Notes: generated by a model not told the origin, from the letters alone. A stretch of DNA of 64,000 nucleotides from Clostridia bacterium (GCA_017403155.1 JAFQOP010000017.1:17023-81022); one strand, 5' to 3'; counted from the first letter of the stretch, positions 21,893 to 53,650 are shown. A program made the numbers and translations.

Positions 21893-21918
21893 TTATATAA
21901 AGGAGAAATCAAGAGAAA

Positions 21919-24438: not shown

Positions 24439-24459
24439 TCGTGGGGCAGGGTAAAGAAA

Positions 24460-25779: not shown

Positions 25780-25806
25780 GCGGATACTGAGCGATAGGAG
25801 ATTTTT

Positions 25807-26871: not shown

Positions 26872-26876
26872 GTGAT

Positions 26877-29114: not shown

Positions 29115-29355
29115 AGTAAAAACTGTTTATTATGAGGATAAGGGAGAAACTATTTACTCCATGGCAGCTCTTGAGGGTAAGACCCCCGAACAGAAGGAGG
29201 AGGAGGAAAAGAACCGCAAGAATTTCCCGACCCTGACAGGTAAGGAAAGACGCGCTATGATAAGCGCGGCATTCTCGGTTTACGGCCCCCTTCTTCTGAT
29301 GCTTGTAGGCTCCTTTGCCCTGGTGGCACTGTTCCTCTACTTTTTCCTGAAATAA
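29095..29355 (+). CDS. Small basic/acidic protein with a single C-terminal TM helix (hypothetical)
   Basis: 86-aa ORF overlapping the OppF end by 20 nt, with a GAGGAC SD 4 nt upstream. The TM segment is AAFSVYGPLLLMLVGSFALVALFLYFFL. Confidence 0.45.
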   Translation: MKKRKTKVKTVYYEDKGETIYSMAALEGKTPEQKEEEEKNRKNFPTLTGKERRAMISAAFSVYGPLLLMLVGSFALVALFLYFFLK

Positions 29356-37752: not shown

Positions 37753-37834
37753 TTTACACGGAACATTCCGTGTAAAAATGAGCAGAAATGAAGGGTGTGC
37801 AATTCTGTTCACTTTTACATGGAATTTATGTAAA
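37753..37834 (+). promoter_or_regulatory. Two TTTACA...TGTAAA inverted repeats upstream of the MoxR operon (candidate operator pair)
   Basis: TTTACACGGAAcaTTCCGTGTAAA (37753-37776, 11-bp arms) and TTTACATggaatttATGTAAA (37814-37834, 7-bp arms). They lie 83 and 25 nt upstream of the ATG at 37859. Confidence 0.3.
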
Positions 37835-37858: not shown

Positions 37859-38998
37859 ATGAACGGAAAGCAATTGTTTAAGAAGCATTATACGCGCCTT
37901 GTGCTTGAGGGAATTTTGCTCTCGGCATTCGGTGGCTTGGCGATAGGCTTTGCGGCGAGCTTCGTCGCGGCGCTTGTCGCGTGGATTCTTGATTTCGGCG
38001 GCATATGGCTTGCCATCGGAGTTGGAGGCGGAGTGGCTCTTGTGAGCGGAATTCTCCTCTATTTCCTGAAATATAAGCCGAATGAGGTGGAGGTAGCCAG
38101 ACGAATTGACCGTCTGGGACTCCAGGAGAGAATGGTAACCATGCTCGAGCTTCGCGGCGAGGACAGCTATATTGCCAACCTTCAGCGCGAGAACGCAAGG
38201 GTAAGCCTTGACAAGGTATCCGCCTCGGGCAGAAAAATCAAATTCAGAATATCAAGACTGTTAGTCATTATGCTGACTGTGGCATTCGTCCTTGCCGCAT
38301 CTATGACCACAGTCGTCGGACTTGCCGAGGCAAACGATGATTTGAAGTTTGACAATCCCTTTGAGGATGAGGATGATATTCTTGCCACCTACATTCCCAT
38401 CACCTACCTTGCAGACGAGGGCGGTGAGATAGAGGGAGAGACAGACCAGCTTATCCCCCCCGGCGGCAGCACGGAAACGGTCGTAGCAGTAGCGGAAGAC
38501 GGATGGGTGTTCGTCGGATGGGATGACGGCAACGAGAATCCCGACAGATTTGAAAAGAATGTGACCGAAGAGTGGGTATATATAGCAATCTTCGAGCAGA
38601 TCGCCGAAGGAGACGGCACGGAGGACAGCGACGAGTCCAACGGTCAGGCGAGCACTCCCGAGGGAGATGAGGCTGAAGACCTTCCCGAGGGCGGTGATGC
38701 TAACGTGGAAAGCGAGCAAAACGGCGGAAATGGAGAAAAGGGTGATGGCTCAGGCTCAGACGGCAACAACGACGGCGGTCAGGGCTCCAGCGAGGAAGAA
38801 GGCGAAGGCAAGGGAGACGGTCAAGGTCTCGGCGCCGGAGGCAAATGGGAGGATAGCAACCAGTTCCTCGACGGCATGACCTACTACAAGGATTACCTCG
38901 ACGTGTATTACGAGATGGCTCAACAGTTTTTTGAGGAGAACGGCGAGATACCGCCCGAGCTGCTTGAATTCTTCGAGACATATTTCAACAGTATATAA
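37859..38998 (+). CDS. Polytopic membrane protein with acidic Gly/Asp/Glu/Ser-rich low-complexity region (hypothetical; first gene of the MoxR block)
   Basis: 379 aa. It has two N-terminal hydrophobic hairpin segments and a third TM (LLVIMLTVAFVLAASMTTVVGLA). A partial Flg_new-like segment (GWVFVGWDDGNENP) follows. A low-complexity tract at about 38591-38840 precedes a conserved-looking aromatic C-terminus. Confidence 0.75.
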   Translation: MNGKQLFKKHYTRLVLEGILLSAFGGLAIGFAASFVAALVAWILDFGGIWLAIGVGGGVALVSGILLYFLKYKPNEVEVARRIDRLGLQERMVTMLELRGEDSYIANLQRENARVSLDKVSASGRKIKFRISRLLVIMLTVAFVLAASMTTVVGLAEANDDLKFDNPFEDEDDILATYIPITYLADEGGEIEGETDQLIPPGGSTETVVAVAEDGWVFVGWDDGNENPDRFEKNVTEEWVYIAIFEQIAEGDGTEDSDESNGQASTPEGDEAEDLPEGGDANVESEQNGGNGEKGDGSGSDGNNDGGQGSSEEEGEGKGDGQGLGAGGKWEDSNQFLDGMTYYKDYLDVYYEMAQQFFEENGEIPPELLEFFETYFNSI

Positions 38999-39031
38999 AA
39001 AATAAATATATAAAAATAAGGTGAAAGAAAA

Positions 39032-40081
39032 ATGGTAACAGAACAGAACATTCAGAAATTCAGTACTCAGTGCAAGAACATCTTTGAGCAGATCGGCAGA
39101 GACGTGATAGGACAGAAGGAGGTTATCGAGGGTGCGGTTATCGCGATGATCGCAGGCGGTAACGTGCTTCTCGAGGGTGTACCCGGAGTTGGCAAGACCC
39201 GTCTTGTTCGCTCTCTCGGCAGAGTATTCGACCTCCCCTTCTCAAGAATACAGTTTACTCCCGACCTTATGCCCGCCGACGTTACGGGTACCAATATCAT
39301 AGTCAAGGACGAGTCGGGCAACTCCTCCTTCCAGTTCCAGCCGGGTCCCATCTTCTCGAACATCATTCTCGCCGACGAGATCAACCGCGCAACCCCCAAG
39401 ACGCAGTCGGCACTTCTCGAGGCGATGCAGGAGCACACCGTTACCGTAATGGGTGTATCCAGAAAGCTCGAGGAGCCCTTCTTCGTTCTCGCAACGCAGA
39501 ACCCCGTTGAGCAGGACGGTACCTATCCTCTTCCCGAGGCACAGATGGACCGCTTTATGTTCAAGATTATAGTTAAGAATCCCTCCCTTGACGAGCTTAT
39601 GGACATAGTTAATATGACCCAGAAGACCATGGCAGAGGTTGCGGATGCGGCTTGTAACGGTGCGGACCTGCTTGAGATGCGCGCTACCGCAAACCAGATT
39701 CCCGTAGCAGAGGACGTTATGAGATATGCTATGCGTCTTTGCTCCGCGACCCACCCCGACAGCGAGTGCGCGAGCGAGGCAGCAAAGAAGTACGTCCGTC
39801 TCGGTGCATCCCCCCGTGCGGGTCAGGCTCTTATCTCTGCAGCTAAGGTAAAGGCTCTTATGAGCGGTAGATACAACGTGTCCTACGATGACGTAAACGC
39901 GCTTGCATACCCCGTTCTCAGACATAGAATGAAGCTCACCTTCGAGGCGGTAGCGGAGAAGGTAAGCCCCGATGAGATAGTATCGATGATTATCGACGAG
40001 CTTTCCGGCAAGGCAAAGCTTAACAGCGACCTCCCCAAGGACGCAAAGGACAAGAAGAAGGATAAGCTCGGGAGAAAGTAA
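39032..40081 (+). CDS. MoxR-family AAA+ ATPase (AAA_3 type)
   Basis: Walker A GVPGVGKT, RIQFTPDLMPADVTGT, Walker B ILADEINRATPKTQSALLEAMQE, ATQNPVEQDGTYPLPEAQMDRF and GASPRAG. Confidence 0.93.
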   Translation: MVTEQNIQKFSTQCKNIFEQIGRDVIGQKEVIEGAVIAMIAGGNVLLEGVPGVGKTRLVRSLGRVFDLPFSRIQFTPDLMPADVTGTNIIVKDESGNSSFQFQPGPIFSNIILADEINRATPKTQSALLEAMQEHTVTVMGVSRKLEEPFFVLATQNPVEQDGTYPLPEAQMDRFMFKIIVKNPSLDELMDIVNMTQKTMAEVADAACNGADLLEMRATANQIPVAEDVMRYAMRLCSATHPDSECASEAAKKYVRLGASPRAGQALISAAKVKALMSGRYNVSYDDVNALAYPVLRHRMKLTFEAVAEKVSPDEIVSMIIDELSGKAKLNSDLPKDAKDKKKDKLGRK

Positions 40082-40980
40082 TGAAGGGTTCTTATTTAAA
40101 CGATGAATTTTTCAGTCGTTTAGAGACGCTCTCTCTTGAGCTTCGTGCCGATCTCGCAGGCTTCTTCGGAGGCAAGCACCTTGTGCGCACGTACGGACAG
40201 ACGGTTGAGTTCGCGGACTACCGCGAGTATATGCTCGGTGACGACATCCGCCGCATAGACTGGAATCTTTACAGCCGTTTTGAGAAGTTTTTCCTGAAGC
40301 TTTTCACCGACGAGCGCCAGATGCACACGCAGATATTCATAGACACCTCCGCCTCGATGGGAAAGCATAACCCCGAAAAGGCGGCGTACGTCGTGGGTAT
40401 AGCGGCGGCACTCGGCTACCTTTCGGTTCACAATATGGACAAGGTATCCTTCAAGCTCATAAGCGGTGAAAAATCCGAGGATCCGTTTGGCACCATCGTT
40501 GGCAAGCGCGCCTTCTTCGACGCAATCAGCTCCCTCGAGGAGCTCTCCTTTGACGGAGAGTGCGATCTTCGCTCCTCCATTATAAATGCGCCGAACGTGG
40601 GCAACAACGACGGTCTGACGGTTATAATCTCCGATTTCTTTACCGACAGCGACTGGAAAAAGGCAGTGGATTATCTTTGCTACAAGAAGAGGCAGGTCCT
40701 GCTCGTACAGGTAATGACCCTTGAGGAAAGAGATCCGCTTTACACGGGTAGAGTCAACCTCATAGACTCTGAGTCGGTGGACGTGGCCGACGACAAAAAT
40801 ATGAAAATGAAGATCGACCGTGCGTCGCAGAATGCCTATGAGGCAGCTATGCGCGAGCTGGTCGGTGACTTGCATCAGTTCTGTAATTCGCGCGGCGCCG
40901 CCTTTGTATCTGTGTGTACCGATCAGCCGATTGAAAGGATGCTCTTTAAAGAACTTTTGAAGGTAGGTATCATGGGATGA
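40081..40980 (+). CDS. DUF58-family protein (MoxR-associated, vWA-like)
   Basis: FADYREYMLGDDIRRIDWNLYSRFEKFFLKLFTDERQ is the hallmark DUF58 motif. The start overlaps the MoxR stop (TAATG). Confidence 0.88.
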   Translation: MKGSYLNDEFFSRLETLSLELRADLAGFFGGKHLVRTYGQTVEFADYREYMLGDDIRRIDWNLYSRFEKFFLKLFTDERQMHTQIFIDTSASMGKHNPEKAAYVVGIAAALGYLSVHNMDKVSFKLISGEKSEDPFGTIVGKRAFFDAISSLEELSFDGECDLRSSIINAPNVGNNDGLTVIISDFFTDSDWKKAVDYLCYKKRQVLLVQVMTLEERDPLYTGRVNLIDSESVDVADDKNMKMKIDRASQNAYEAAMRELVGDLHQFCNSRGAAFVSVCTDQPIERMLFKELLKVGIMG

Positions 40981-42890
40981 CGTGGCTGGTACCTCTTGGA
41001 CTGATTGCACTTGCAAGCATTTTAGTCCTTATAATCATTTACATAATCAAGCCCAACTACCAGCAGAAGCTGGTCTCCAGCACCTACGTATGGAAGCTGA
41101 GCTTGAAATATAAAAAGCGCAGAATACCGATAAACAAGCTGAACAATATTCTGATATTCCTCTGTCAGCTCCTTATCCTCTCCATCTGCTCCGTGCTTCT
41201 CGCGCGCCCTGTAATAGCAAACGAGAAGATTGGTGACGAGAGCGAGAGAATAATAATCATCGACGCATCGGCAAGCATGCTCCTCTCCGACGGCAACAAC
41301 ACCCGCTTCGAGCGCGCGGTGACCGATGCATCTGTCCTTGCTGAACAGACGCATGAAAACGGTGGCATCGTTTCGGTAATTCTCGCAGACGAAACCCCCG
41401 AGTTTATCGTCCAGCGCTTGAGCTCGGATAACAGTGAAGAGCTCAAGCTCGGTATGACATCGCTCACAGAGGGGAACACCCGTTGCTCATATAGCTCTGC
41501 GGATATGGAGGGCGCCATTGCCCTTGCCGAGGAGGTTCTTGCCTACAATTATGAGGCTCAGATTCACCTCTTCACCGCAACGAACTACATAGAGAAAAAC
41601 GGCGTGTTCGTGCATGACGTGTCCGCCGCGGACGAGTGGAATGCGGCAGTCCTCGGCTGCACCGCAACGCTCGACAACGAGAACCATTATGAGATAACGG
41701 TAGACCTCGGCTGCTTCAGCAACGAAACAAAGGATTTCACCGTTTACTGTCAGATAAACGGTGCCAACGGCAAGGTGCAAAGTGAAGCACCCTTCCACGA
41801 GCCTATCGGTAAATCGGCATTCTTTGACCCCTCTGATGACAGACAGACCGTCACCTTCAACAGTGACGATTTCGGAGGCGAGTACCTTTATTCCTTTGAT
41901 TACATAGAGGTGTACGTTGAAGTCGACGATAACTTCGAGAAGGATAACTTCTTCTCCCTCTACGGAGGCACAAGACCCACGATAAGGGTGCAGTACGCCA
42001 GCTCAATACCCAATAACTACTTTGGCGGTATTGTGCGCACCATCCGTGAGAAGATGAAGGGCGATTGGAGAATTGAGTTCAAGGAGCTCAAGGCGGACCA
42101 AAAGGCTGCCACCGAGGGCTTTGACCTTTATATCTTTGAGCACCGTATGCCCGACGTTATGCCTACCGACGGAGTAGTTCTGCTCGTTGACCCGAGCGGC
42201 TCGCCTGATGGCTCCGGCATACACTTCGGCGGCACCTACAACGTAGATAAGTCCTCCACCCTTGCGGCAGGAACACCCCACAAGCTCACCGAGTACGTGG
42301 ATTCCTCGAGGGTCACCATCGCTAAGTACACCGAGATTCAGAGCAGCGACGGATATGAGGAGCTTGCATACTACAACGGCAGACCCGTCATCCTCGCAAA
42401 GAATGAGGACAATGCGAAGGTCGTGGTATGGGCGTTTGACCTTAACTACTCCAACCTTATCGCTATGCCCGATTTTTCCTTCCTTATGTATAATCTCTTT
42501 AATTACTATATTCCCTCCACCTTCGACTCCTACTCCTATGAGATAGGAGATACGGTCAGCCTCACCGGTAGGGGCACCGAGCTGAAGCTGTCGGGAAATG
42601 GCGAGGAGATAACGTTTGAGGGCAATAGAGGAGAGTACACCGTTACCGCCCCGGGCAACTACACGGTTACCCAGAAGCCAATGGCAGGTGACGAGCTTAT
42701 AATCGAGAGCTTCTTCGTTGGCATTCCCAATTATGAGAGTGACGTAACGAAGGAGGTCGATTTCATCCCCCCTGCGAGCGTAGAGATAGTAACCGAGATA
42801 GAATTTGAGGACCTTATCTTCTACTTTGCCATAGCACTTGTATCCCTCCTCTTCGTCGAGTGGATACTCCAGTCCAAGAAGAACTATTAA
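40977..42890 (+). CDS. BatA-like membrane protein: N-terminal double-TM domain + vWA domain + C-terminal TM
   Basis: The N-terminus has two TM helices. The vWA domain has MIDAS IIIIDASASM. The C-terminal helix is LIFYFAIALVSLLFVEWIL. An ATGA overlap joins it to the DUF58 gene. Confidence 0.85.
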   Translation: MTWLVPLGLIALASILVLIIIYIIKPNYQQKLVSSTYVWKLSLKYKKRRIPINKLNNILIFLCQLLILSICSVLLARPVIANEKIGDESERIIIIDASASMLLSDGNNTRFERAVTDASVLAEQTHENGGIVSVILADETPEFIVQRLSSDNSEELKLGMTSLTEGNTRCSYSSADMEGAIALAEEVLAYNYEAQIHLFTATNYIEKNGVFVHDVSAADEWNAAVLGCTATLDNENHYEITVDLGCFSNETKDFTVYCQINGANGKVQSEAPFHEPIGKSAFFDPSDDRQTVTFNSDDFGGEYLYSFDYIEVYVEVDDNFEKDNFFSLYGGTRPTIRVQYASSIPNNYFGGIVRTIREKMKGDWRIEFKELKADQKAATEGFDLYIFEHRMPDVMPTDGVVLLVDPSGSPDGSGIHFGGTYNVDKSSTLAAGTPHKLTEYVDSSRVTIAKYTEIQSSDGYEELAYYNGRPVILAKNEDNAKVVVWAFDLNYSNLIAMPDFSFLMYNLFNYYIPSTFDSYSYEIGDTVSLTGRGTELKLSGNGEEITFEGNRGEYTVTAPGNYTVTQKPMAGDELIIESFFVGIPNYESDVTKEVDFIPPASVEIVTEIEFEDLIFYFAIALVSLLFVEWILQSKKNY

Positions 42891-42905
42891 CAGGAGCATA
42901 GCCAG

Positions 42906-45623
42906 ATGACAAACTTCAGAATTGAATATAGCAATCCTTGGTTTTTGCTGCTGTTGATTCCCGCAGTTCTTCTGACACTGTGGCCCTATTTCAGATCGGC
43001 AAAAAAGTACCGTCGCACAAGGAACAGAATACTCTCGATGGCATTTCACCTTGTCGCGCTGGTGCTTGCGATAAACCTCCTCTCGGGAATTAAATTTTCC
43101 TACGAGGTACCCAACCTTGAAAACGAGGTTATCCTCCTCGTCGATTCCTCGGACAGCAACGGGGAGAAGAAGCAGGACAAGGACGATTTCATTGCCTCGG
43201 TGATAAACGTGTGCGACGATCAGTATCGCATAGGTATAGTAAAGTTCGGCTTCGACCAGAAGTACGTTGCACCCCTCACCGAGAACTCGTCGGAGGCGTT
43301 TGATAAGTATCTCACCTCCGAGGATCCCGACGTCACCGCTACCGACATAGCCTCGGCGCTGAAGTACGCGAGCACCCTTTTCACCAACCCAAAAAGTGCC
43401 AAGATCGTCCTCATATCCGACGGTATAGAGACCGACAGCGCGGCAGCCTCCGTTATCAAGGGCATCGTTTCCGACGGAATCAAGGTCGACACGGTTCATT
43501 TCCCGAACGAGGAGCACGATGAGCTCCAGATAGTCGACGTGCAGATTCCTACCCAGGAGATTGCAGTTGGTGAGGAGTTTGTGGTTGACCTTATTCTCAA
43601 GAGCAACCTCGGCACCGCAGAGCACATGATAAAGCTCACCGCCTATGACGGCGAGGAGGCGGTAGGTGAGGCAGAGGTTCCCGTCAAGGGGGAGGAGTCG
43701 AAGCTCCAGATAGCCCTCGCGCTTGAGAAGCGCGGACTTCATGAGCTTACCTTCAAGGTGGAAACCGAGGAGGATACTCTTACCGCCAACAATGAATACC
43801 ACACCTTTATTAACCTCGCGATATTCGAGAACATCCTTATAGTAGAGAGGACGGAGGGAGAGGGCAAGTCTCTTGCTGATTTCCTTGCTCCGACCTATAA
43901 GGTTGTAACAATGAGCCTTGACGAGGATGCTGAGGTAATTCCTCGCGCCGTCGAGGACTTCGTTGACTTTGAGCAGGTAATACTCGTTAACGTAGCATAC
44001 GGCGATATGCCCGCAGGCTTTGAGGAGTCTCTCAACGACTACGTATACAGGCTTGGCGGAGGTCTTCTCACCCTCGGCGGTGAGAACGATTCGGTAAACG
44101 GTGTTCCCGTTGCTCACGCATACAACAGAAACGATATAGCAAACTCCATTTACCTAAAGGATATGCTTCCCGTCCACGCAATTGATTACACGCCCCCTGT
44201 CGCAATTATGCTTGTTATAGATGCCTCCGCATCTATGAGCAGTGGCAGACTGGAGGCGGCAATCATGGGTGCCGAGGCGTGCCTCGGTTCTCTGCATGAC
44301 CGCGACTTCTGCGGCGTTATGTCCTTCCAGACCAGAGCACAGGAGGAGATTCAGGTGCTCCCCGTAACCGAGCGCGAGACGATACTTGAGGCAATAAGAA
44401 GCGTCGACGATGTAGACAGCGGTGCCCAGGGAGGTACAATTTTCTCCGATGCTATTATGAGAGCGGGCCACGCCCTCTCCGTCATTGAAAACGTTGAGAG
44501 AAAGCACATCATCATGGTAACCGACGGCAACCCCGGTGACTCCTACGAAACCTACCTGCCATACATCGAGGACAACAGGAGTGAACATATCACTATGTCC
44601 GTCATCGCTGTCGACGATATCGACAGCTCCCTGCGCGAGAAGATGCAGAAAACCGCTGACGCAGGCGGAGGAGCCTTCTACAGCCTCAAGGCAAACGAGT
44701 ATGACAAGATACCCGAGATTATGCAGGAGGACCTTGGCAACAATGCAATCGTAGAAATCTACGAGGAGGAATTCGTTCCCACAGTTAAGGATCGCACAAG
44801 CATCACAGCAGGCGTTGACCCCACCAAAATTCCCCCGCTTATGGGATATTACGGCACGGTGGCAAAGCAGGGAGCTACGGTAGCCCTTGCAGGCGAGTAC
44901 GTTCCCATCTATGCCGAGTGGCAGTACGGAAAGGGAACTGTCGGCAGCTTTATGAGCGATCTTACGGGTATATGGTCGAATGAATTCATCACATCCCCTG
45001 TCGGTCAGTCGATAGTTCACAACATTATAAACAGTGTGTTCCCGACGGAGGACGTCCGCATTGATAGCATCGAGTATGTTCTGAAGACCGACAACCTCAC
45101 CAACCAGCTTACCGTATACGGAGCTCTCGAGGGCGAGAATATAGAGGTTCAGGTCACACCCGTGTCAAATTCTCTAGCATCCAAGCTGGAGGAGGGTGTT
45201 GCAGTAAGCGTGGCAGAGGCGAACAGACGCTATAAGTTTGCCCTGAAGGACGCGGGCATCTATCGGATAAAGATAAAGAGAACCGATGCGACGGGCAAAG
45301 CCCTGCCCGACATAGTCTTTTACAAGGCGTTCTCCTACTCCGAGGAGTATAACGCATTCCCCGAGAGAGAGCCTCTTGGCAGGGAGCTTCTTTCCCTTAT
45401 CGCCAAGGACGGAAAGGGTATGGAGATCGATGATCCCGCAGGCGTGTTTGAGAACTTTGCCAAGACGCTGAAGAAGGAATTCGATCCCCGTGACATATTC
45501 CTCATAGTTTGTATCGTGAGCCTCCTTCTGGACGTCGCGGTACGTAAATTCAAGTTCAAGTGGCCCCACGAGCTCATCCGCGAGCATAAGCAGAAGAAGC
45601 TCGAGCGCTCACAGAATAGCTGA
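42906..45623 (+). CDS. BatA-like membrane protein with two vWA domains and C-terminal TM
   Basis: Double-TM N-terminus (WFLLLLIPAVLLTLWPYF .. MAFHLVALVLAINLL). MIDAS motifs are LLVDSSDSNG and MLVIDASASMS. The C-terminal helix is IFLIVCIVSLLLDVAV. Confidence 0.85.
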   Translation: MTNFRIEYSNPWFLLLLIPAVLLTLWPYFRSAKKYRRTRNRILSMAFHLVALVLAINLLSGIKFSYEVPNLENEVILLVDSSDSNGEKKQDKDDFIASVINVCDDQYRIGIVKFGFDQKYVAPLTENSSEAFDKYLTSEDPDVTATDIASALKYASTLFTNPKSAKIVLISDGIETDSAAASVIKGIVSDGIKVDTVHFPNEEHDELQIVDVQIPTQEIAVGEEFVVDLILKSNLGTAEHMIKLTAYDGEEAVGEAEVPVKGEESKLQIALALEKRGLHELTFKVETEEDTLTANNEYHTFINLAIFENILIVERTEGEGKSLADFLAPTYKVVTMSLDEDAEVIPRAVEDFVDFEQVILVNVAYGDMPAGFEESLNDYVYRLGGGLLTLGGENDSVNGVPVAHAYNRNDIANSIYLKDMLPVHAIDYTPPVAIMLVIDASASMSSGRLEAAIMGAEACLGSLHDRDFCGVMSFQTRAQEEIQVLPVTERETILEAIRSVDDVDSGAQGGTIFSDAIMRAGHALSVIENVERKHIIMVTDGNPGDSYETYLPYIEDNRSEHITMSVIAVDDIDSSLREKMQKTADAGGGAFYSLKANEYDKIPEIMQEDLGNNAIVEIYEEEFVPTVKDRTSITAGVDPTKIPPLMGYYGTVAKQGATVALAGEYVPIYAEWQYGKGTVGSFMSDLTGIWSNEFITSPVGQSIVHNIINSVFPTEDVRIDSIEYVLKTDNLTNQLTVYGALEGENIEVQVTPVSNSLASKLEEGVAVSVAEANRRYKFALKDAGIYRIKIKRTDATGKALPDIVFYKAFSYSEEYNAFPEREPLGRELLSLIAKDGKGMEIDDPAGVFENFAKTLKKEFDPRDIFLIVCIVSLLLDVAVRKFKFKWPHELIREHKQKKLERSQNS

Positions 45624-45649
45624 GACAGAAAAGCCGAAAGGAGCAGCAG

Positions 45650-48466
45650 ATGAAAATATTACGTTTTATATTTCCCATTGTTTTAATAATTTGTTGCTTG
45701 CTGGCAGTCTGCTCCTGTGAGCAGCTCCCCGTCCTGAGGACCCCCACCGGTGTCAAGATAGAGAACACCTCTCTCACCTTGAGCTGGAAGGAGGTCAAGG
45801 ATGCCCGTCTTTACACGATAAGCATCACAAAGGATGGCGAGGAGGAGCCAAAGGAATACGTAGCAAGCAAAACGACCTATTCGCTTGTCAACCTTGACGA
45901 GGGTGATTACACAATAAAGGTTAAGGCAAACGGCAGGGAAGAGGTCATAGAGGATTCGGATTGGTCCGACGAGATTCCCTTCACAAGGGAGCATGAGACG
46001 GGCTTGGTCTTTTCCCTCATAAATAACAAAACAGCCTATGAGATAACGGGCAAGGGAACCGCCACGGGCAATATAGTCATTCCCGACACATATCGCGGAC
46101 TTCCCGTAACCTCAATAGGCAAAAAGGCGTTCTTTAATAAGAGCGACGTCACGGGCATCACCTTCGGTGAGAACAGCAACGTCAAGAGCATAGGAGAGTT
46201 TGCCTTTGCCAACTGCTCATACCTCACCTCGTTGAATCTGCCCGCCGGGCTTGAGTCTATCGGTGCGAGTGCCTTCGCCAGCTGCCGACTTCTCGGTGGC
46301 GAGCTGGTTGTCCCCGGTGGAGTCAAGTCTATTCCCACCAACGCATTCGCCTTCTGCGCCCTGATAGAGAAGGTAACACTCTCCGAGGGCGTTGAAACGG
46401 TGGATAAGATGGCATTTACCGACTGCAAGAGCATCACCGAGCTGAAGCTGCCCGACAGCCTTATCTCGGTCGGTGAGTATGCCTTCTCGGTATGTGTGAA
46501 CCTTAACTCTCTTACCTTCGGTAAGAATATTTCAGAAATCGGCCCCTATGCCTTCTCGGGCTGCGCGGGGATAAGCAGCATCACTCTCCCCGACAGTCTC
46601 AAAAAGGTCGGAGAGGGAGCATTCTTTGAATGCGCGGAGCTCTCTGAGGTCGCTCTCGGCACGGGCGTCGAGGTGATTGACCTCGGTGCCTTCCACAGCA
46701 CGAAGATATGGGAGGCAAGCCCTGATGAAAACGAGGTATACGTAGGCAAGTGGCTTATCGGACTTAAGGATACTACCGCAAATGCGATAAGCTTCAGACC
46801 CGATACCTACGGTATTGCCAATTATGCCTTCCTCCGGAATACCTCGCTCTCCACGGTGAGAATCCCCGACAGCATTAAGATTATCGGCGAGGCGGCATTT
46901 GCGCAGTCAAAGATAAACACCTTCATCCTCGGCGCAGGCGTCGAGGTGATAGGAGACCAGACGTTTATTTCCTGCGAGAATCTTTCCAAGGTAATACTTG
47001 GCTCCTTCGACACTGTTACGGGCGGCATTGAGTTCAGCAGTCTTAGGTCGATAGGCTCCTATGCCTTCCAGGAGTGCAAGGCGCTTTCGGATATCGATAT
47101 CCCCGAGTCGGTTAAGGTCATCGGCTCTTATGCGTTCAAGAACACCGCCATTCATTCAAAGGACGGCGTCGTTTACGCGGGCGTCAGCATTTCGCCCGAG
47201 GGCGAAGCAATCTACGACGGCAGTTGGGTCGTCGGCTTCCTTGAGGACGTCGGGTCCTCGGTTAAGATAGAGAGCGGCACTGTCGGTGTAGCCAACTACG
47301 CATTCTATAAGTGCGACGTAATAACCTCCGCCAGCCTACCCTCCACTGTCAAGACCGTAGGGCGTGCAGCTTTTTACGACTGCTCGGGTCTTGCCTCGGT
47401 GACCCTCCCCGATACTCTTGAGGTAATCGAGGACTACACCTTCTACCGCTGCACAAGCCTCAAGCTCTTCAATCTTCCTCCCATTTTGAGGAAAATAGGT
47501 CGCTCCGCATTCTATAAGTGTGCGAGTGCCTCCTCGGTTAAGGATTCCGACACCGACGCCGACGTGCTTGTGATACCTCCCAGTGTTGAAGAGATAGGCG
47601 ATTTCGCCTTTTACTGCTGCACCTTCGAGGAAACTGTTGCCACCGACGTATACAGATACGGCGTCGACACCGTCATCATAGGCGACGGCGTCAGGAGCAT
47701 CGGTGCCAATGCCTTCTACGGATTCTCCTCTATCAAGAAGGTTGTGCTCGGCAACGGACTCCAGACCCTTGGCGAGAAGGCATTCTACAAGTGCGTGCTT
47801 CTCTCCGAGGTAGACTTCGGCACCTCCCTTACCAATATCGGTTTGAAGGCGTTCTATAAGTGCGAGGCGCTCACCTCCGTCACTCTTCCCGACAGCCTTG
47901 TCACTCTTTCCGATTATGCATTCTACAAGTGCACGGCGCTCACCTCCGTTAATCTCGGAGGAGGCCTTAGCTCGATTGGCGAGTTCGCCTTCTACGGCGA
48001 TTTGGAGATAAGCTATCTCTACCTGCCGACGAGCATTACCAAAATAGGTCGCCAGGCATTCAGAAACTGCGATAAGCTCACAAGCGTGATACTCGCAGAC
48101 AATATTCAAGCAATTGATAAGCACGCCTTCTACGGCTGCGATAACCTGACGGTATATACCGAGCTTTCCTCCATTCCCGAGGGCTGGGAAAAGCATTGGA
48201 ATTCCTCTTACCGCCCCGTTATATGGAACTGTACCCTCTCCGAGGATAAGGACTACGTGGTCTCTCTCGAGATAAAGGAGAAGGGCATAACGAACAAGAA
48301 CAATTCCAACGAGCTTTCCTCTCCCATAAAGCTGGGCTATGAGTTTGTCGGCTGGGGCTCCAACTCCTCCGCAACCGAGCCCTCCGTCACAATGGAAGAG
48401 ATCCACACTGCCGAGAAGGGCAGAAGACTCTTTGCTATCTGGAAAGAGGTTACCCCCGAGGAATGA
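45650..48466 (+). CDS. Probable lipoprotein: Fn3-like module + about 28 BspA-type LRRs + C-terminal Flg_new repeat
   Basis: Signal with CLLAVCSC. The Fn3-like module LTLSWKEVKDARLYTISI is paralogous to modules in the 2740-aa protein. The LRR array spans about 46070-48200. The C-terminus has GYEFVGWGSNSS..RLFAIWKE. Confidence 0.9.
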   Translation: MKILRFIFPIVLIICCLLAVCSCEQLPVLRTPTGVKIENTSLTLSWKEVKDARLYTISITKDGEEEPKEYVASKTTYSLVNLDEGDYTIKVKANGREEVIEDSDWSDEIPFTREHETGLVFSLINNKTAYEITGKGTATGNIVIPDTYRGLPVTSIGKKAFFNKSDVTGITFGENSNVKSIGEFAFANCSYLTSLNLPAGLESIGASAFASCRLLGGELVVPGGVKSIPTNAFAFCALIEKVTLSEGVETVDKMAFTDCKSITELKLPDSLISVGEYAFSVCVNLNSLTFGKNISEIGPYAFSGCAGISSITLPDSLKKVGEGAFFECAELSEVALGTGVEVIDLGAFHSTKIWEASPDENEVYVGKWLIGLKDTTANAISFRPDTYGIANYAFLRNTSLSTVRIPDSIKIIGEAAFAQSKINTFILGAGVEVIGDQTFISCENLSKVILGSFDTVTGGIEFSSLRSIGSYAFQECKALSDIDIPESVKVIGSYAFKNTAIHSKDGVVYAGVSISPEGEAIYDGSWVVGFLEDVGSSVKIESGTVGVANYAFYKCDVITSASLPSTVKTVGRAAFYDCSGLASVTLPDTLEVIEDYTFYRCTSLKLFNLPPILRKIGRSAFYKCASASSVKDSDTDADVLVIPPSVEEIGDFAFYCCTFEETVATDVYRYGVDTVIIGDGVRSIGANAFYGFSSIKKVVLGNGLQTLGEKAFYKCVLLSEVDFGTSLTNIGLKAFYKCEALTSVTLPDSLVTLSDYAFYKCTALTSVNLGGGLSSIGEFAFYGDLEISYLYLPTSITKIGRQAFRNCDKLTSVILADNIQAIDKHAFYGCDNLTVYTELSSIPEGWEKHWNSSYRPVIWNCTLSEDKDYVVSLEIKEKGITNKNNSNELSSPIKLGYEFVGWGSNSSATEPSVTMEEIHTAEKGRRLFAIWKEVTPEE

Positions 48467-48516
48467 TCGGGCAGGAAAATAGGTATAATTTATAACCAAT
48501 ATAGGAGCATCAATAA

Positions 48517-51500
48517 ATGAAAAGAATCAGTAAAATATTATTGCTGCTGGCACTCGTTGTCCTGACCGCCCTCGCGCTTGTCGCGTGCGGCGGCACCGAG
48601 ACGCTCTCCGTAAAGGAGGACAGAATGCCTCAGCTCGTCCACGTTCAGGGCGAGGAGCTTAACCTTGCCGACGGTGTTTTGATTTACAACGACGGCTCGG
48701 GCGACAGTGAGCTTGCTATGAACGCTGAGGGCGTTACCGTCAGCGGATACGACAAGAACACCCTTGGTGAGCAGACCGTAACAATCACCTACGGTGAAGC
48801 AACCACCACCGTCAAGATAACGGTAGTTCCCAGAATGACAGTTGACGGCTACACCGCTGACTACCTCGTCGGTGATGAGTTTGACACCGATGACGGAGTG
48901 CTTAAAATAACGAGAAACGACGGCAGCTCCTTCACAGTTATCCTCAAGAGCGATAAGGTGAAGATAGAGGGCTTCGATTCCTCCGCCGCAGGCACTCTTA
49001 ACCTCACAGCAAAGTATACGAACGGTGACACGGTATATACCTGCCCCTTCACTGCTACCGTCTATGCGGTAGACAGCGTGAGCTTCAAGGCACCCAACAA
49101 GACAGCCTATGACAGCCACGACGGCGAGCTTGACGTTTCGGGCGGCTACTTTACCCTGAGCGGCAAGAACGGTGCGCTCAAGAAGGACGTTCCTCTCGAT
49201 GCCGATATCGTACAGGGCTTTGATATCAGCGCCGTAAATGAGACCAACACCCCCATTTGGCAGACACTTACGGTTGAATACGGCGGCAAGACCCATTCGT
49301 ATAAGGTAGAGCTTACCTACACCGATATATCTCTGTTTAAAAAGAACGCTCAGCCCCTCCTCTCCCTCAACTGGGAGGTTCCCTCCGACGAGGAGCCCGA
49401 GCTTACCGAGGCGCAGGGCACCCTTGCACTCGCAATGATGGAGAAGTATCTCGATATGTCTCCCGCTGAGCGCACCTTCATCACCGATGAGGAAACTCTC
49501 GCGACAGCGCGCGCGGCTATGTCCTATGGCTTTGCCACCTGGGCAGACGAGATACAGAAGTACGACAACGCGTTTGCTATCGAGTACGGTGAGCTTGTAT
49601 TCAAGTGCGAGAGCCGCGAGGCTCTTGAGGCGGCAATCGAGGGGCTTGCAAACACCGATACCCCCATCTACACCTACAGCCCTATCCTTCTTCAGCTTAT
49701 GGAGACCTTTAAGGAAGAGCAGGTAAACACCGACTATCTCTTCTCCGACTATCCCGTAATCGACAACGAGACCTATGAGGCCCTTGTCACCGTCTTCGAG
49801 TTTATGCTCGACCTCGACACCGTTGCCGACAAGGTAGGCGAGGATTGGAGAGATGACATCTCCGTATATGCAACCGAGATTGAGGACGTATACGACGCTA
49901 TCGTAAACAGCGAGTTTTACAGCTATGAATTCGCTCAGTTCTTCTACTACGTTTCCATGTGGAGAACCGAGGACGATCTCTTCGACTTTCTCTACACCTA
50001 CTATTATGACGTAAAGGAAGATGTTGCTTCTATAATCAAAATAGCCAACATTCGTCTGCCCTCCGAGCTTGAGGAGGTTTTTGCATACGTCTATGAGGCG
50101 ATGAACCTGATGAGCTTTATCACCAATGATTATTACTTCTATCAGATTCCCGATACCACCGAGTTCTTCTACAGCTACTACATGGCGCAGAAGCTGTCCA
50201 ACGAAATCATCACCAGCGAGGACCCCAACGACGAAATGCTCCAGACACTCTTCTACGGTCTTCCCCTTAACAGCATGCTCGGTATAAGCGCAGAGGAGGG
50301 AATATACACCTTCAGCGACATACTCGAGTATATCAATACCTCCGAGGGCGGCTACTACTCGCTTTGCGGAGCGCTCCTTGATATCCCCGCGTTTGACGAG
50401 CTTATGAGCAAGTATCTCGACATTGTAGTCAAGGACCTTGATAGCGAGGAGTATATGCATTCCGAGGAGTACGTAACAGACGTAAAGGCTATGTTCGCTC
50501 TTTACACCGCTCTTACACCCTCCCAGCAGTTCAACTTCCTTGGCATTCTCAGCACTTATTACGTGAGGGGCTACGTTCCCATGGCGTTTGACAACGTCAC
50601 CGAGGGCTACTCCGAGCTTTCCACCGTCTTCGTAGACATGGTAAACGGTGTATATACCGATATGTTCACGACCGAGGCTGCAAAGAACGCATATCTTGAC
50701 CTTATCTTCGCAACCGAGATTTATGCACAGCGCTACCTCTACTCTTCTCTCAATACCGGAACGGAAAAGACCTGGCTCGAGGATTTCACTGCAAGAATCA
50801 ATGCGGTTACCGCGGCTCTTGGCACTATGGATGATGCCGACAAGGCAATCTTCACCGCCGAGCTCGGAGTCCTTTACACCACCTACAAGGGCATTCTTGA
50901 TAGCTATGGCACCACGGGCGACGTTGAGCTTGGTGATTGGGAGGACGACATCGCCGAGCTTGAGGAGGCAGTTCTTAATCTTGAGCTCGCTTACGCTATT
51001 CTCAGCGAAGGCGCTTCCTACTACGATTTGTTCTTTACGGCATATGAGAGAGTCACGGCAATCACCGACAGAATTCTCTCCGACCCGAACACTCCCTCCG
51101 AGATCAAGCACGCAATTATATACAGCGAGCTCTATTCCACCAGCTCTCTTGACAAGATGCTTGACCCCGACCTCGTCGTTGACCCCGAGGATGAGGTTTT
51201 CTGGAGCTACGACTACGTTATCAGCGTCTACCGCTCCATGTACGTAAACGCGTTGCTCACCCTTGGCGGTGGCACCAGCCTCTACGACTACTATCAGATG
51301 TACGGCTTTGATAAGTTTATGAATAAGTCCTATGACCTCATCTGGGCTTATATGGGATCACAGACGGATGACACCGACATCTTTGATAAGGCAGCAGGTC
51401 TTGACGTAATGACCGACTTTGCTGAGATGGACGTAAACGCGCAGATGATGTTCATACTCTACATAGAGGGTGAGAACGGATTCTACTACACAGCTATCAG

Positions 51501-51798
51501 CGAGTTCCTCGCAGAGGAATTCACAGCCAACACCGCAGCGGCAGGCGAGCTCCTCGTCGCTCTCGAGATGGAGGCAATCGGTTATAGGTATTACAGCTAT
51601 ATGCTCGAGAACGAGGCAGCAACCGAGGCAGAGGTCGAGGCAGCAGCCGAGTCTCTCCTCGAGGCATACGCCGCCCTTGAGACTGCCCTCGGAAATCTTT
51701 CTGACGACGAGGGAAAGGAATTCACCGACAACCTCGGTGACATCTATGAAATTTATAAGGCAATCGCCGAGAGCGTAACGCCTGCTCCCGTCGAGTAA
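48517..51798 (+). CDS. Orphan lipoprotein: three Ig-like modules + about 800-aa acidic, aromatic-rich helical region
   Basis: Lipobox LALVAC|GG. Ig-like segments end in TVTITYGEATTTVKITVV, LNLTAKYTNGDTVYTCPFTATVYAV and TLTVEYGGKTHSYKVELTY. I recognise no family motif in the remainder. Confidence 0.85.
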   Translation: MKRISKILLLLALVVLTALALVACGGTETLSVKEDRMPQLVHVQGEELNLADGVLIYNDGSGDSELAMNAEGVTVSGYDKNTLGEQTVTITYGEATTTVKITVVPRMTVDGYTADYLVGDEFDTDDGVLKITRNDGSSFTVILKSDKVKIEGFDSSAAGTLNLTAKYTNGDTVYTCPFTATVYAVDSVSFKAPNKTAYDSHDGELDVSGGYFTLSGKNGALKKDVPLDADIVQGFDISAVNETNTPIWQTLTVEYGGKTHSYKVELTYTDISLFKKNAQPLLSLNWEVPSDEEPELTEAQGTLALAMMEKYLDMSPAERTFITDEETLATARAAMSYGFATWADEIQKYDNAFAIEYGELVFKCESREALEAAIEGLANTDTPIYTYSPILLQLMETFKEEQVNTDYLFSDYPVIDNETYEALVTVFEFMLDLDTVADKVGEDWRDDISVYATEIEDVYDAIVNSEFYSYEFAQFFYYVSMWRTEDDLFDFLYTYYYDVKEDVASIIKIANIRLPSELEEVFAYVYEAMNLMSFITNDYYFYQIPDTTEFFYSYYMAQKLSNEIITSEDPNDEMLQTLFYGLPLNSMLGISAEEGIYTFSDILEYINTSEGGYYSLCGALLDIPAFDELMSKYLDIVVKDLDSEEYMHSEEYVTDVKAMFALYTALTPSQQFNFLGILSTYYVRGYVPMAFDNVTEGYSELSTVFVDMVNGVYTDMFTTEAAKNAYLDLIFATEIYAQRYLYSSLNTGTEKTWLEDFTARINAVTAALGTMDDADKAIFTAELGVLYTTYKGILDSYGTTGDVELGDWEDDIAELEEAVLNLELAYAILSEGASYYDLFFTAYERVTAITDRILSDPNTPSEIKHAIIYSELYSTSSLDKMLDPDLVVDPEDEVFWSYDYVISVYRSMYVNALLTLGGGTSLYDYYQMYGFDKFMNKSYDLIWAYMGSQTDDTDIFDKAAGLDVMTDFAEMDVNAQMMFILYIEGENGFYYTAISEFLAEEFTANTAAAGELLVALEMEAIGYRYYSYMLENEAATEAEVEAAAESLLEAYAALETALGNLSDDEGKEFTDNLGDIYEIYKAIAESVTPAPVE

Positions 51799-51810
51799 AA
51801 GGCAACAGCG

Positions 51811-52707
51811 ATGAGAAGATTCGGAATCTCCATTTACGGAGTATCAAGAAAAATCAGAAGCGGAGAGCTCACCCCCGTCGAGGCATTCCACAAAATATGT
51901 GATATGGGTGCCGAGGCGGTGGAGCTCGTGCCCTTCGGCTTCAATCTCGTCACCACCCCCTCCCTCAAGGCAGAGCTGCGCGCGGCAAGCGCCGAGCGCA
52001 GCGTCCCGATAGGGAACTACTCTCTCAACGCCAACTTCCTCATGCTCACCCCTGAGCGATATGAGGAAGAGATGGCGAGAGTAAAGTCGCACATCGATGC
52101 GGCATCGGATATGGAAATACCCACCGTCCGCGTTGACTCAGCGGCATACTCCCGTCCAAAGTCCGAGAACACAATGGAAAAGTTCCAGGCGGAGCTGCCA
52201 CTGATAGTCGAAACCTATGAGCGCCTGTGCGATTATGCCAAGCCTCTCGGCATCACTATTCTTCTCGAGAATCACGGCTTCCACGCCAACGGCTCCGAGC
52301 GCGTCCGCCAGATACTGACGAGCGTAAAGAGGGATAACTTCGCCCACCAGATGGACGTCGGCAACTACGTTTGCGTTGACGATATCCCCGAGATTGCCGC
52401 CAAGAAGATGATCGGCTTCGCCAAGACCATCCATATGAAGGATTTCTACCTCCGTCCCGCGCACCGCGACCCGGGCGACTCCGATGAATTCAACTGCGAG
52501 AGCTCCTGGTTCCGCTCGGTAAACGGCACCTTCCTCCGCGGCTCCATTCTCGCCCAGGGAGATATTGATATCTGGGACGTTATGCGCACGGTAAAGAGCT
52601 CCGACTTTGACGGAGATATCTACCTCGAGTATGAGGGCATGGAGGAATGCGAGTACGGCACCGCTGTCTCCTTTGCCAACATGAAGCGAATCTACAACGA
52701 GGTATAA
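51811..52707 (+). CDS. Sugar-phosphate isomerase/epimerase (xylose-isomerase-like TIM barrel)
   Basis: 298 aa. The pattern ILLENHGF, HMKDF and YLEYEG is typical of AP_endonuc_2 / xylose-isomerase-like TIM-barrel proteins. Confidence 0.8.
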   Translation: MRRFGISIYGVSRKIRSGELTPVEAFHKICDMGAEAVELVPFGFNLVTTPSLKAELRAASAERSVPIGNYSLNANFLMLTPERYEEEMARVKSHIDAASDMEIPTVRVDSAAYSRPKSENTMEKFQAELPLIVETYERLCDYAKPLGITILLENHGFHANGSERVRQILTSVKRDNFAHQMDVGNYVCVDDIPEIAAKKMIGFAKTIHMKDFYLRPAHRDPGDSDEFNCESSWFRSVNGTFLRGSILAQGDIDIWDVMRTVKSSDFDGDIYLEYEGMEECEYGTAVSFANMKRIYNEV

Positions 52708-52725
52708 TGAAGGGAGAGCATTATT

Positions 52726-52893
52726 ATGGCAAGATGCAAAAGCTGTAAATATTTCCGCACCGACAACGACTGCGACGGCCCATCCATTGAGTGGTGCGCC
52801 CTCGAAATAGTTGACACGGGTTACTACGTCTCCGACTATCCCGCCTGCGACCACTACGTCGAAGCCCCCGAGGAATATGACTGGGACGACTGA
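52726..52893 (+). CDS. Untracked 55-codon Cys-rich ORF (MARCKSCKYFRTDNDCDGPSIEWCALEIVDTGYYVSDYPACDHYVEAPEEYDWDD)
   Basis: I translated this by hand. It is below the 60-aa cutoff of the ORF track. An AAGGGAGAG SD ends 7 nt before the ATG. Codon usage (GC3-rich) matches neighbouring genes. It sits 18 nt after the preceding stop and immediately before the terminator. Confidence 0.5.
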   Translation: MARCKSCKYFRTDNDCDGPSIEWCALEIVDTGYYVSDYPACDHYVEAPEEYDWDD

Positions 52894-52906: not shown

Positions 52907-52942
52907 AAAAAACACACAACCGCGAGGGTTGTGTGTTTTTTT
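52907..52942. terminator. Bidirectional intrinsic terminator shared by the convergent plus-strand block and the giant minus-strand gene
   Basis: 10-bp stem ACACACAACC/GGTTGTGTGT (52912-52921 and 52927-52936), flanked by A6 and T7. Confidence 0.8.
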
Positions 52943-52969: not shown

Positions 52970-53650
52970 TTATTGCTCGCCTTCCTCGCAAAGAGCGTTG
53001 AGAGCGTGCTCAAGGAATTCTGCTATAAGTCTGTGACCTGCTGTGTTGGGGTGCAGACCGTCCTCCATATAGTACTCCCTCGTTTCCTCTGACTCGGGGT
53101 CGAGCTCAAGCTCGTTGTAAAGGTCTATCACATCAACTCCGTATTTTGCACACGCCTCAATGATAGCGTTTACGTAATCCTCGAGGGTGTGTCCCGCTCC
53201 GTTCGGGATGCTGTCGTAGGTGTGCGTCTCGCCCGTTGCGGAATTTACACCGTAGCCGTATCTGTGAAGCGGAGTGATAAATACTATCCTTGCATTCGGG
53301 TATTTAGCCTGCAATGCGGGAATTATTACGTTGAGTGCGCCAAGGAAGGACACGTCAGAGGTATCGGTGATAGCTCCTATGGGAGTGTCGTAGCCGTAGT
53401 CGTTGGTTCCCATAAATATCGTTATCAGGTCAGCCTCGGGAACAGTGTCGTAAATATCCGTGAGCGAATCGCACTCAGCGCTGCCTGTGCCCGTGGAGCT
53501 TACAGTGCCCTCTGTTGAGGTAACTGTGCTAACACTGCCGAATTCGAGCATCTGCTCAAGCAGCTGCCAATACTTGTCGCCCTCGCAGCCTATGCCGGCT
53601 GTTATACCGTCGCCAACGAATATTGCATTTTTGTCTGCCCAGTAGCCCTT
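52970..53650 (-). other. C-terminal SGNH/GDSL-hydrolase-like domain with Ser-to-Gly substitution in block I
   Basis: Block I reads IFVGDGITAG (codon GGT, verified on the DNA at about 53610), where GDS is expected. Block III FMGTNDYG and block V DGLHPNTAGH are intact. Confidence 0.65.

Follow-up and report, generated by a model that had tools for sequence, protein, structure and literature searches.

Operons that combine MoxR, DUF58 and BatA/B genes are widespread, and their deletion affects stress tolerance or virulence. We know of no client or mechanism for these operons. In a 64,000-nt stretch of DNA from Clostridia bacterium (GCA_017403155.1 JAFQOP010000017.1:17023-81022; hereafter the window, whose coordinates are used throughout), such genes are closely followed by genes for surface lipoproteins, which raises the question of whether the two sets belong together. 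An initial annotation had read nine genes at 37859-52893 as a single operon for envelope assembly, with the co-transcribed surface proteins as plausible clients of the MoxR ATPase and its vWA (von Willebrand factor A-type) partners. Gene order in related genomes points to a conserved module that is best read as a lineage-specific variant of the MoxR (MRP)-DUF58-BatA/BatB system, in which lipoproteins replace the TPR/SH3 partners BatC/D/E. The genes of the module region, numbered g0 to g9 in their order, and the signals around them are as follows.

29424-37646, + strand: g0, a 2740-residue BspA-type leucine-rich repeat (LRR) and Flg_new lipoprotein (Pfam; lipobox MVSC)
37753-37834, + strand: imperfect hairpin in the g0-g1 spacer (free energy -29.7 kcal/mol, z -6.2)
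37859-38998, + strand: g1, a 379-residue membrane protein with a Flg_new_2 ectodomain and an acidic G/D/E/S linker (Pfam, hydropathy, alignment)
39032-40081, + strand: g2, a MoxR-type AAA+ ATPase, predicted cytoplasmic (AAA_3 and AAA_lid_2)
40081-40980, + strand: g3, a DUF58 protein, predicted cytoplasmic (Pfam DUF58, DxSxS motif)
40977-42890, + strand: g4, a 637-residue BatA-type protein (BatA_N and VWA_2)
42906-45623, + strand: g5, a 905-residue BatA-type protein with two vWA domains (Pfam and profile matches)
45650-48466, + strand: g6, a 938-residue BspA-type LRR lipoprotein (LRR_5, lipobox)
48517-51798, + strand: g7, a 1093-residue lipoprotein with three Big_3 immunoglobulin (Ig)-like domains and a predicted all-alpha domain of about 820 residues (Pfam, AlphaFold2)
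51811-52707, + strand: g8, a xylose-isomerase-like TIM barrel, predicted cytoplasmic (AP_endonuc_2)
52726-52893, + strand: g9, a 55-residue Cys-rich acidic open reading frame (ORF) with a plausible ribosome-binding site
52907-52941, both strands: bidirectional intrinsic terminator (15-bp stem, T-runs on both strands)

The nine packed ORFs from g1 to g9 were found on the + strand exactly where the initial annotation had placed them. Its TAATG and ATGA overlaps were also read in the sequence, at 40079-40083 (MoxR/DUF58, 1 nt shared) and 40977-40980 (DUF58/g4, 4 nt), and the other junctions measure 12-50 nt. The strong bidirectional terminator claimed for the end of the cluster is present as a 15-bp hairpin with T-runs. 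No + strand terminator comparable to it was found in any intergenic gap of the g1-g9 cluster, and an Rfam search of the whole window returned no match.

The linkage of the LRR and 1093-residue lipoprotein genes to the MoxR/vWA genes, which the initial annotation had proposed to check in relatives, was found in essentially every genome that has these lipoprotein genes. Six contigs retrieved through g7 homologues (33-70% identity) all keep the order g4, g5, an LRR gene for about 920 residues, g7, and four of the six also carry MoxR and DUF58; their 3' flanks are unrelated (chromate transporter, nitroreductase/FGGY, bPH/TnpV, transketolase). A scan of one genome per GTDB species found no relative when a single g7 sequence served as the query. 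With an alignment as the query, it gave 39 loci, which were then searched by tblastn with all window proteins. g6 lies directly 5' of g7 in 38 of these 39 species-representative loci. The four genes g4-g5-g6-g7 occur together in 34, the other four loci with g6-g7 being cut by contig ends, and MoxR and DUF58 are present in at least 25. The sole exception (L021; L-numbers denote related loci) lacks vWA genes and has a lone g7 paralogue next to a Big_3 protein of 1312 residues. When metagenomes were scanned with g1 as the seed, 22 further loci were added, human-gut contigs included. All those that extend downstream keep the same gene order; the one exception is the degenerate L112, whose matches to MoxR and DUF58 were only partial.

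Spacing is also retained: DUF58 and g4 overlap by 4 nt in 26 of 26 loci, 11-17 nt separate g4 from g5 in 37 of 37, and the medians are 38 nt for g5-g6 and 48 nt for g6-g7. Judged by gene order and spacing, g6 and g7 are not chance neighbours of the BatA/vWA genes.

The conserved unit begins upstream of the start at 37859 given by the initial annotation, which had left out the syntenic g0. A protein of the same architecture and of 2458-2836 residues is encoded 5' of g1 in every locus with upstream DNA visible (L089-L093, L096, L106, L111, L004, L006, L014, L016, L019), and the g0-g1 linkage extends to distant lineages whose genes 5' of g0 differ. In Pfam, g0 has 14 LRR_5 matches (3e-258) and three Flg_new repeats. 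Its C-terminal domain is not LRR, and the non-repeat C-terminal 330-600 residues align across loci at 30-43% identity. Tandem LRR_5 repeats with a secretion or anchoring signal, the marks of BspA-type LRR proteins, are found in both g0 and g6, each of which has a lipobox.

The g0-g1 spacer, 110-240 nt long, holds a strong stem lacking a U-tract in every case examined (the window, L089-L093, L096, L103, L106 and L111; z -2.7 to -9.9), its structure being retained and its sequence not conserved. This hairpin is probably an intercistronic RNA stem (a stabiliser, an attenuator or a processing/RNase III site), and because of it g0 is probably expressed at a level different from that of the downstream genes.

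On this comparative evidence, the conserved module is g0-g1-(MoxR-DUF58)-g4-g5-g6-g7, about 22 kb (29424-51798), and it is passed on vertically within a clade of Clostridia from gut and rumen that have not been cultured. The genomes that carry it are labelled at NCBI as Clostridia, Eubacteriales or Oscillospiraceae metagenome-assembled genomes (MAGs), Ca. Gallimonas, Ca. Scatosoma and Christensenellaceae. All of the 120 matches listed for g5 and g1 homologues fall within this clade, and no outgroup operons were reached among them.

The cytoplasmic genes are the most conserved. g2 matches AAA_3 (PF07726, 4e-62) and AAA_lid_2 (PF17863, 6e-19) in Pfam and has the sequence features of MoxR-proper/AAA_3 proteins (Walker A GxxGxGKT, Walker B hhhhDE, C-terminal AAA lid), with a secondary match to bpMoxR (PF20030, 3e-10 vs 4e-62 for AAA_3). 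The Walker A motif GVPGVGKT was present as claimed, and neither it nor the Walker B motif LADEINR varies in any of the 27 orthologues, which are 78-93% identical to the window MoxR. The DUF58 gene (PF01882, 4e-30) follows moxR immediately with its 1-nt overlap, an arrangement kept in at least 25 loci. g3 also carries a DxSxS motif of its own (DTSAS), which had been overlooked; it is kept in 27 of 27 orthologues, and the proteins are 67-88% identical to the window DUF58. Identity to the window declines steadily from the cytoplasmic genes, with MoxR highest, to the surface genes, through g4 (38-70%) and g5 (40-66%) down to g6 (34-62%) and g7 (25-71%). NCBIfam gave no family for g1, g3, g4, g7 or g9.

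Both g4 and g5 have the make-up of Bat-type proteins, namely a BatA_N transmembrane hairpin followed by a MIDAS (metal ion-dependent adhesion site) vWA domain, g5 by profile matches. In g4, an N-terminal transmembrane hairpin with a basic cytoplasmic loop is followed by the vWA domain, an ectodomain of about 400 residues with no Pfam match and a C-terminal transmembrane segment; BatA_N (PF07584) and VWA_2 (PF13519) were matched in 18 of 18 orthologues. In g5, the hairpin and vWA1 precede a GATase1-like domain that is interrupted by the insertion of vWA2, then a C-terminal ectodomain, a transmembrane segment and a basic tail. Pfam detected the two vWA domains and, weakly, GATase1_like. Profile-profile comparison matched the hairpin and vWA of g5 to those of g4 (probability 91%), and residues 316-422 and 630-695, which flank vWA2 (about 430-610), gave profile matches to STM1381/2gk3. 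The g5 profile at residues 430-600 (vWA2) matched BatB 3ibs, 4jdu, ITIH4, alpha2delta and integrin I domains, as well as the pilus tip adhesins SpaC and Mfa5. Searches of the Protein Data Bank (PDB) with g4 and the g7 family, by sequence and by profile, yielded nothing informative beyond vWA and Ig domains. An extra partial g5 copy lies between g5 and g6 in L011 (5786-6988 of that locus).

The three intact MIDAS motifs reported for the BatA-type proteins (DASAS, DSSDS, DASAS) were recovered. In a survey of g5 (top 8 variants of 39 sequences listed), the commonest variants retain DxSxS at both sites, save a minority DTTDS at vWA1.

The hairpin loops are basic (KYKKRR in g4, KKYRRTRNR in g5), and hydropathy and charge place a basic tail after the C-terminal transmembrane segment of each protein. 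From these two features, by the positive-inside rule, all three vWA domains with a MIDAS are predicted to lie outside the membrane, as is the GATase1-like domain. The analogy with BB0173, a Borrelia BatA-type protein whose vWA domain was mapped experimentally to the periplasm (PMC5700661), agrees with this topology. What would then face the cytoplasm is limited to the basic loops of the hairpins, the tail of g5 and the loop of g1. Within g4 and g5, conservation is 0.77-0.78 for the cytoplasmic segments vs 0.52-0.62 for the ectodomains, and the cytoplasmic segments are equally conserved in copies of the module that lack MoxR.

g1, encoded directly 5' of MoxR or, in the MoxR-less loci, of g4, had been described as polytopic with an acidic G/D/E/S tail. 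Its three hydrophobic segments and acidic stretch stood, the latter as a linker, and a Flg_new_2 domain had been missed. The protein consists of an N-terminal transmembrane hairpin, a conserved cytoplasmic loop, a third transmembrane segment, the extracellular Flg_new_2 domain, the acidic linker and a conserved C-terminal motif. In the alignment the cytoplasmic loop is highly conserved (ARRIDRxGLEERxITMLEL...LQRxDA). Its NCBI name (P0380, 'phage holin family protein') was rejected, as no holin family in Pfam or NCBIfam was matched at E<=0.01 and the context is chromosomal and syntenic.

The LRR part of the claim that g6 is an Fn3 and BspA-type LRR lipoprotein held (LRR_5, 2e-141). Its N-terminal Fn3 fell below threshold, at 18 bits vs a cutoff of 25, and a weak Flg_new domain was found at the C-terminus. 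The g6 orthologues are full-length and 33-61% identical to the window protein, and nearly all g6 and g7 orthologues keep their lipoboxes.

The 1093-residue g7, which had been regarded as an orphan, in fact has homologues over its full length, more than 160 of them (90% clustering) at 33-99% identity, and those with a named source come from Clostridia or 'Ruminococcaceae' MAGs; the orthologues in the module loci are 25-71% identical to the window protein. phmmer against 1.84 billion representative proteins returned 201 clusters (50%), nearly all of 1040-1150 residues and with the helical part starting at about residue 270. As far as these matches go, the family appears small and its architecture fixed, with a lipobox, three Ig-like domains (Big_3 in Pfam, 9e-18) and an all-helical domain of about 820 residues that occurs almost exclusively in this setting.

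AlphaFold2, given 33 homologues, modelled full-length g7 with a predicted local distance difference test (pLDDT) score of 87, placing the Ig-like domains at about residues 28-267 ahead of some 820 helical residues. The helical part alone reached a pLDDT of 91 and a predicted template modelling score of 0.82. When this part was compared by Foldseek with the PDB, the best E was 0.013 and the template modelling scores were at most 0.17, all to generic solenoids. Nothing significant (E < 0.01) was found in BFVD, and the full-length model retrieved Ig-domain matches only. The modelled domain is alpha-solenoid-like and appears to lack a known structural analogue in the PDB or BFVD. No catalytic signature was seen in the family alignment, whose invariant residues are mostly aromatic.

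The last two genes of the annotated operon are not part of the conserved module. The TIM barrel assigned to g8 was confirmed (AP_endonuc_2, 1.5e-22; nearest solved relative Art22, 8z1i, E 4e-8); its place in the operon was not general, as it is found 3' of g7 only in the nine closest loci. Across these it is 81-89% identical, against only 38-70% for g7 in the same loci. g8 is a passenger specific to the nearest subclade and is far more conserved than its neighbours, the pattern to be expected if a cytoplasmic enzyme, itself conserved, has hitch-hiked into the operon in recent times. For the 55-residue g9, also listed as a member, none of the related loci yielded a homologue, even with E relaxed to 10, nor was there any Pfam match, and it is uncertain whether it is a real gene. 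Both were rejected as core members.

Downstream of the cluster, a convergent gene at 52970-63904 (- strand) encodes a 3644-residue protein with four Laminin_G_3 domains, Chlamydia-PMP repeats and a C-terminal GDSL lipase, and it uses the bidirectional terminator in common with the cluster. Upstream, at 13146-29114, a 2544-residue S8 subtilase (PA, Fn3-like, LRR_5) is followed by a 370-residue Flg_new protein and an Opp-type ABC importer with an oversized 839-residue SBP_bac_5 binding protein, a layout that recalls proteolysis and peptide uptake of the PrtP/Opp style. OppF (80% identical) lies directly 5' of g0 in the window and in L091-L093. The Opp transporter was rejected as a core member because it is missing from this position in the distant lineages L096 and L111, the latter with a rhodanese gene there. 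Between OppF and g0, an ORF of 86 residues with a C-terminal transmembrane segment (29095-29355, + strand) has its position held by 84- and 85-residue genes in L091 and L092. Long ORFs antisense to g3-g7 (298-857 residues; 40120-41016, 42003-44117, 47336-48499 and 48538-51111, all on the - strand) are mechanical shadow ORFs without independent support. The cumulative GC skew drops steadily along the window, and a GidB/RsmG gene lies close to its start (2401-3141, - strand); given that gene, the region may be close to a replication origin.

The initial annotation knew of no described arrangement like this, and none was found in the literature searched. The Bat operons of Bacteroides and of spirochaetes (Borrelia BB0170-BB0176, Leptospira batABD) likewise combine a MoxR (AAA_3) ATPase, DUF58 and two vWA membrane proteins with a BatA_N hairpin. 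Their vWA domains are extracytoplasmic, as in BB0173 (PMC5700661), and are predicted to be so here. The molecular function of Bat proteins is still unknown (PMC3557215, PMC5700661). The two systems differ in that Bat operons encode BatC/BatE (TPR, SH3) and BatD in the position that the lipoproteins take here, and no TPR, SH3 or BatD domain was detected with Pfam or NCBIfam in the nine products or in g0. Compared with Bat, the BatA-type proteins of the module are two to three times longer and anchored at both ends, and one has its second vWA inside the GATase1-like domain. The module also adds three lipoproteins (two LRR, one Ig and helical) and a Flg_new_2 membrane protein. Finally, its host here belongs to the class Clostridia, phylum Bacillota, whereas Bacteroides and spirochaetes are diderm.

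Other systems resemble the module in part. The Bifidobacterium PFNA cluster (pkb2-fn3-aaa-atp-duf58-tgm), in concept the closest precedent, also joins a MoxR-type ATPase and DUF58 to a large surface protein, thought to mediate host contact (PMC8430577, PMC6803598). It differs in having a Ser/Thr kinase and a transglutaminase and no BatA-type vWA, LRR or Big_3 lipoproteins, and its surface proteins are unrelated to those of the module; among the nine products here, Pfam detected no kinase or transglutaminase domain, the fn3 match being the one below threshold. In NorQ/NorD, CbbQ/CbbO and RavA/ViaA, an AAA+ MoxR protein works through a vWA/MIDAS adaptor on a specific client (PMC9976466, PMC6987120). 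By analogy, g3 is presumed to be the vWA-like adaptor of MoxR, and DUF58 with its DxSxS motif would fill the adaptor role seen in NorQ/NorD-type pairs. Unlike the candidate partners here, which are extracytoplasmic, the clients of those pairs are cytoplasmic or inner-membrane enzymes and their vWA domains are cytoplasmic. The g5 vWA2 profile brings in a third comparison, with MIDAS-vWA adhesion proteins (integrin I, SpaC, Mfa5). An extracellular MIDAS beside LRR and Ig modules suggests, by this analogy, metal-dependent binding of acidic ligands. In contrast to such adhesins, the module shows no pilus/sortase context and no integrin beta-propeller, and its link to a cytoplasmic AAA+ protein is unique to the MoxR/Bat class.

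How could these parts work together? We propose that this variant of the MoxR-DUF58-BatA/B system forms a surface complex in which the vWA platform and the lipoproteins are serviced by the cytoplasmic ATPase, a reading that we hold to be about evenly balanced between right and wrong. g4 and g5 would form a membrane platform, whose vWA and GATase1-like domains would point outward, next to the ectodomain of g1 and to the three lipoproteins. Their MIDAS sites could bind acidic ligands on co-encoded partners, namely the g1 acidic linker and/or g0, g6 and g7, and platform and partners would make up a complex on the surface that is decorated with LRR and Ig modules and is probably adhesive. Through its putative vWA-like DUF58 adaptor, the MoxR hexamer would act on the conserved cytoplasmic segments and assemble, reset or switch the complex as an inside-out chaperone; for the paralogous copy that lacks MoxR, this service would be provided in trans. 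The envelope-assembly role is putative, and the lipoproteins may be either clients or subunits. A bolder version, which is tentative and on balance doubtful, is an 'inside-out' adhesion machine in which an ATP-driven MoxR/DUF58 motor would switch or load the double-anchored proteins. Their extracellular MIDAS vWA domains would hold the giant LRR protein as an adhesin, together with the smaller LRR lipoprotein and the Ig lipoprotein, whose helical domain of about 820 residues would be a new fold.

Several observations weigh against the proposed complex. In seven loci, g1 lies directly 5' of g4 with neither MoxR nor DUF58 between them, and in L034 (1-700) the BatA gene comes immediately after MoxR, DUF58 being absent; because a whole clade lacks MoxR/DUF58 in cis and L034 lacks DUF58, the surface proteins may be able to do without the ATPase. 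About one third of the g4 orthologues have a degenerate MIDAS. Because strong hairpins part g0 from g1, g0 may be expressed separately from g1 onward. LRR_5 proteins are abundant in these genomes, which raises the chance of an LRR neighbour, and all host genomes bearing homologous loci are uncultured MAGs. An adhesive function is a guess from domain types alone. How a cytoplasmic AAA+ ATPase acts on extracellular vWA domains is the central puzzle, for the classic Bat system as well.

The copies without MoxR and DUF58 (L004, L006/L025, L014, L016, L019, L020, L037, L111) are paralogues or variants of the module. In a g5 tree, six of the seven MoxR-less loci form one clade, sister to that of the window, and L037 stands apart. 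The JAZSHN and JAFXHU genomes each carry one MoxR-less and one MoxR-containing copy. L004 and L006 (=L025) encode an extra Flg_new protein of about 1030-1150 residues 3' of g7, and tblastn matches to the g0 Flg_new-repeat region suggest the same in most other MoxR-less copies. These relationships point to an ancient duplication that copied g0-g1-g4-g5-g6-g7 as a block. Such a duplication without MoxR would mean that the vWA proteins and the lipoproteins belong together, and that the copies either share MoxR and DUF58 in trans or can dispense with them. A strict reading as a co-transcribed chaperone with its clients, as first put forward, is therefore not general, since the paralogous clade has no adjacent MoxR/DUF58.

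Alternative explanations fare less well than the serviced surface complex. An unlikely one is a nutrient-harvesting complex, in which proteins or glycans caught by the LRR/Ig/solenoid lipoproteins would be passed to the neighbouring S8 protease and Opp importer, or into TIM-barrel sugar metabolism, with the vWA proteins as a scaffold. The Opp importer directly 5' of g0 in the window and L091-L093, the S8/PA/LRR giant further 5' in the window itself and the sugar-isomerase-like TIM barrel 3' of g7 in the same subclade all fit this idea. However, Opp genes are missing 5' of g0 in L096 and L111 and g8 occurs only in the nearest subclade. Moreover, no carbohydrate-active enzyme, peptidase or substrate-binding-protein domain was found by Pfam or NCBIfam in g0, g1 or g4-g7, and the Foldseek comparisons of the helical part of g7 with the PDB and BFVD gave neither an enzyme nor a SusD-like fold.

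Quite unlikely is that two independent units are neighbours, a Bat-like envelope-stress operon and separate LRR/Ig lipoprotein genes whose order reflects lineage-level synteny. A genome full of LRR_5 giants, the persistence of the surface genes in MoxR-less loci lacking a cis ATPase, the lone g7 paralogue in L021 and the hairpins between g0 and g1 would all be expected under this explanation. It does not sit well with colinearity that persists down to 26-28% g7 identity while the 3' flanks and the genes 5' of g0 change, nor with an old block duplication that kept the vWA genes with the lipoproteins even without MoxR. The 11-50-nt gaps lacking terminators and a g7 family found almost nowhere else speak against it as well. 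Very improbable, finally, is a biological-conflict system, either an NTP-dependent MoxR-vWA defence or fast-evolving surface decoys or masks against phages: MoxR-vWA modules are known from conflict systems (PMC7159879), the window MoxR has its secondary bpMoxR match and the surface components evolve much faster than MoxR, but no effector, beta-propeller or other sensor domain was found in the locus, PADLOC gave weak generic AAA matches only, the vWA domains are predicted to lie outside the cytoplasm, and the locus, which is stable and inherited vertically, shows no variable defence-island context. A MoxR-vWA-beta-propeller ternary system was rejected too, as the bpMoxR match is only secondary, no propeller or effector is present and PADLOC was negative.

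The variant described here offers candidate extracellular partners that form a fixed set and are inherited together, and with them a natural MoxR-less paralogue for comparison, so that the puzzle of how MoxR acts on vWA proteins across the membrane becomes testable. If the adhesion-machine reading is true, these proteins would be the first defined extracellular clients of the MoxR-DUF58-BatA class. g7 itself stands for a small family of proteins whose helical domain is predicted with confidence and for which the searches retrieved no structural analogue. The module suggests a conserved surface structure in abundant uncultured gut Clostridia, which could bear on their contact with the host or with food particles.

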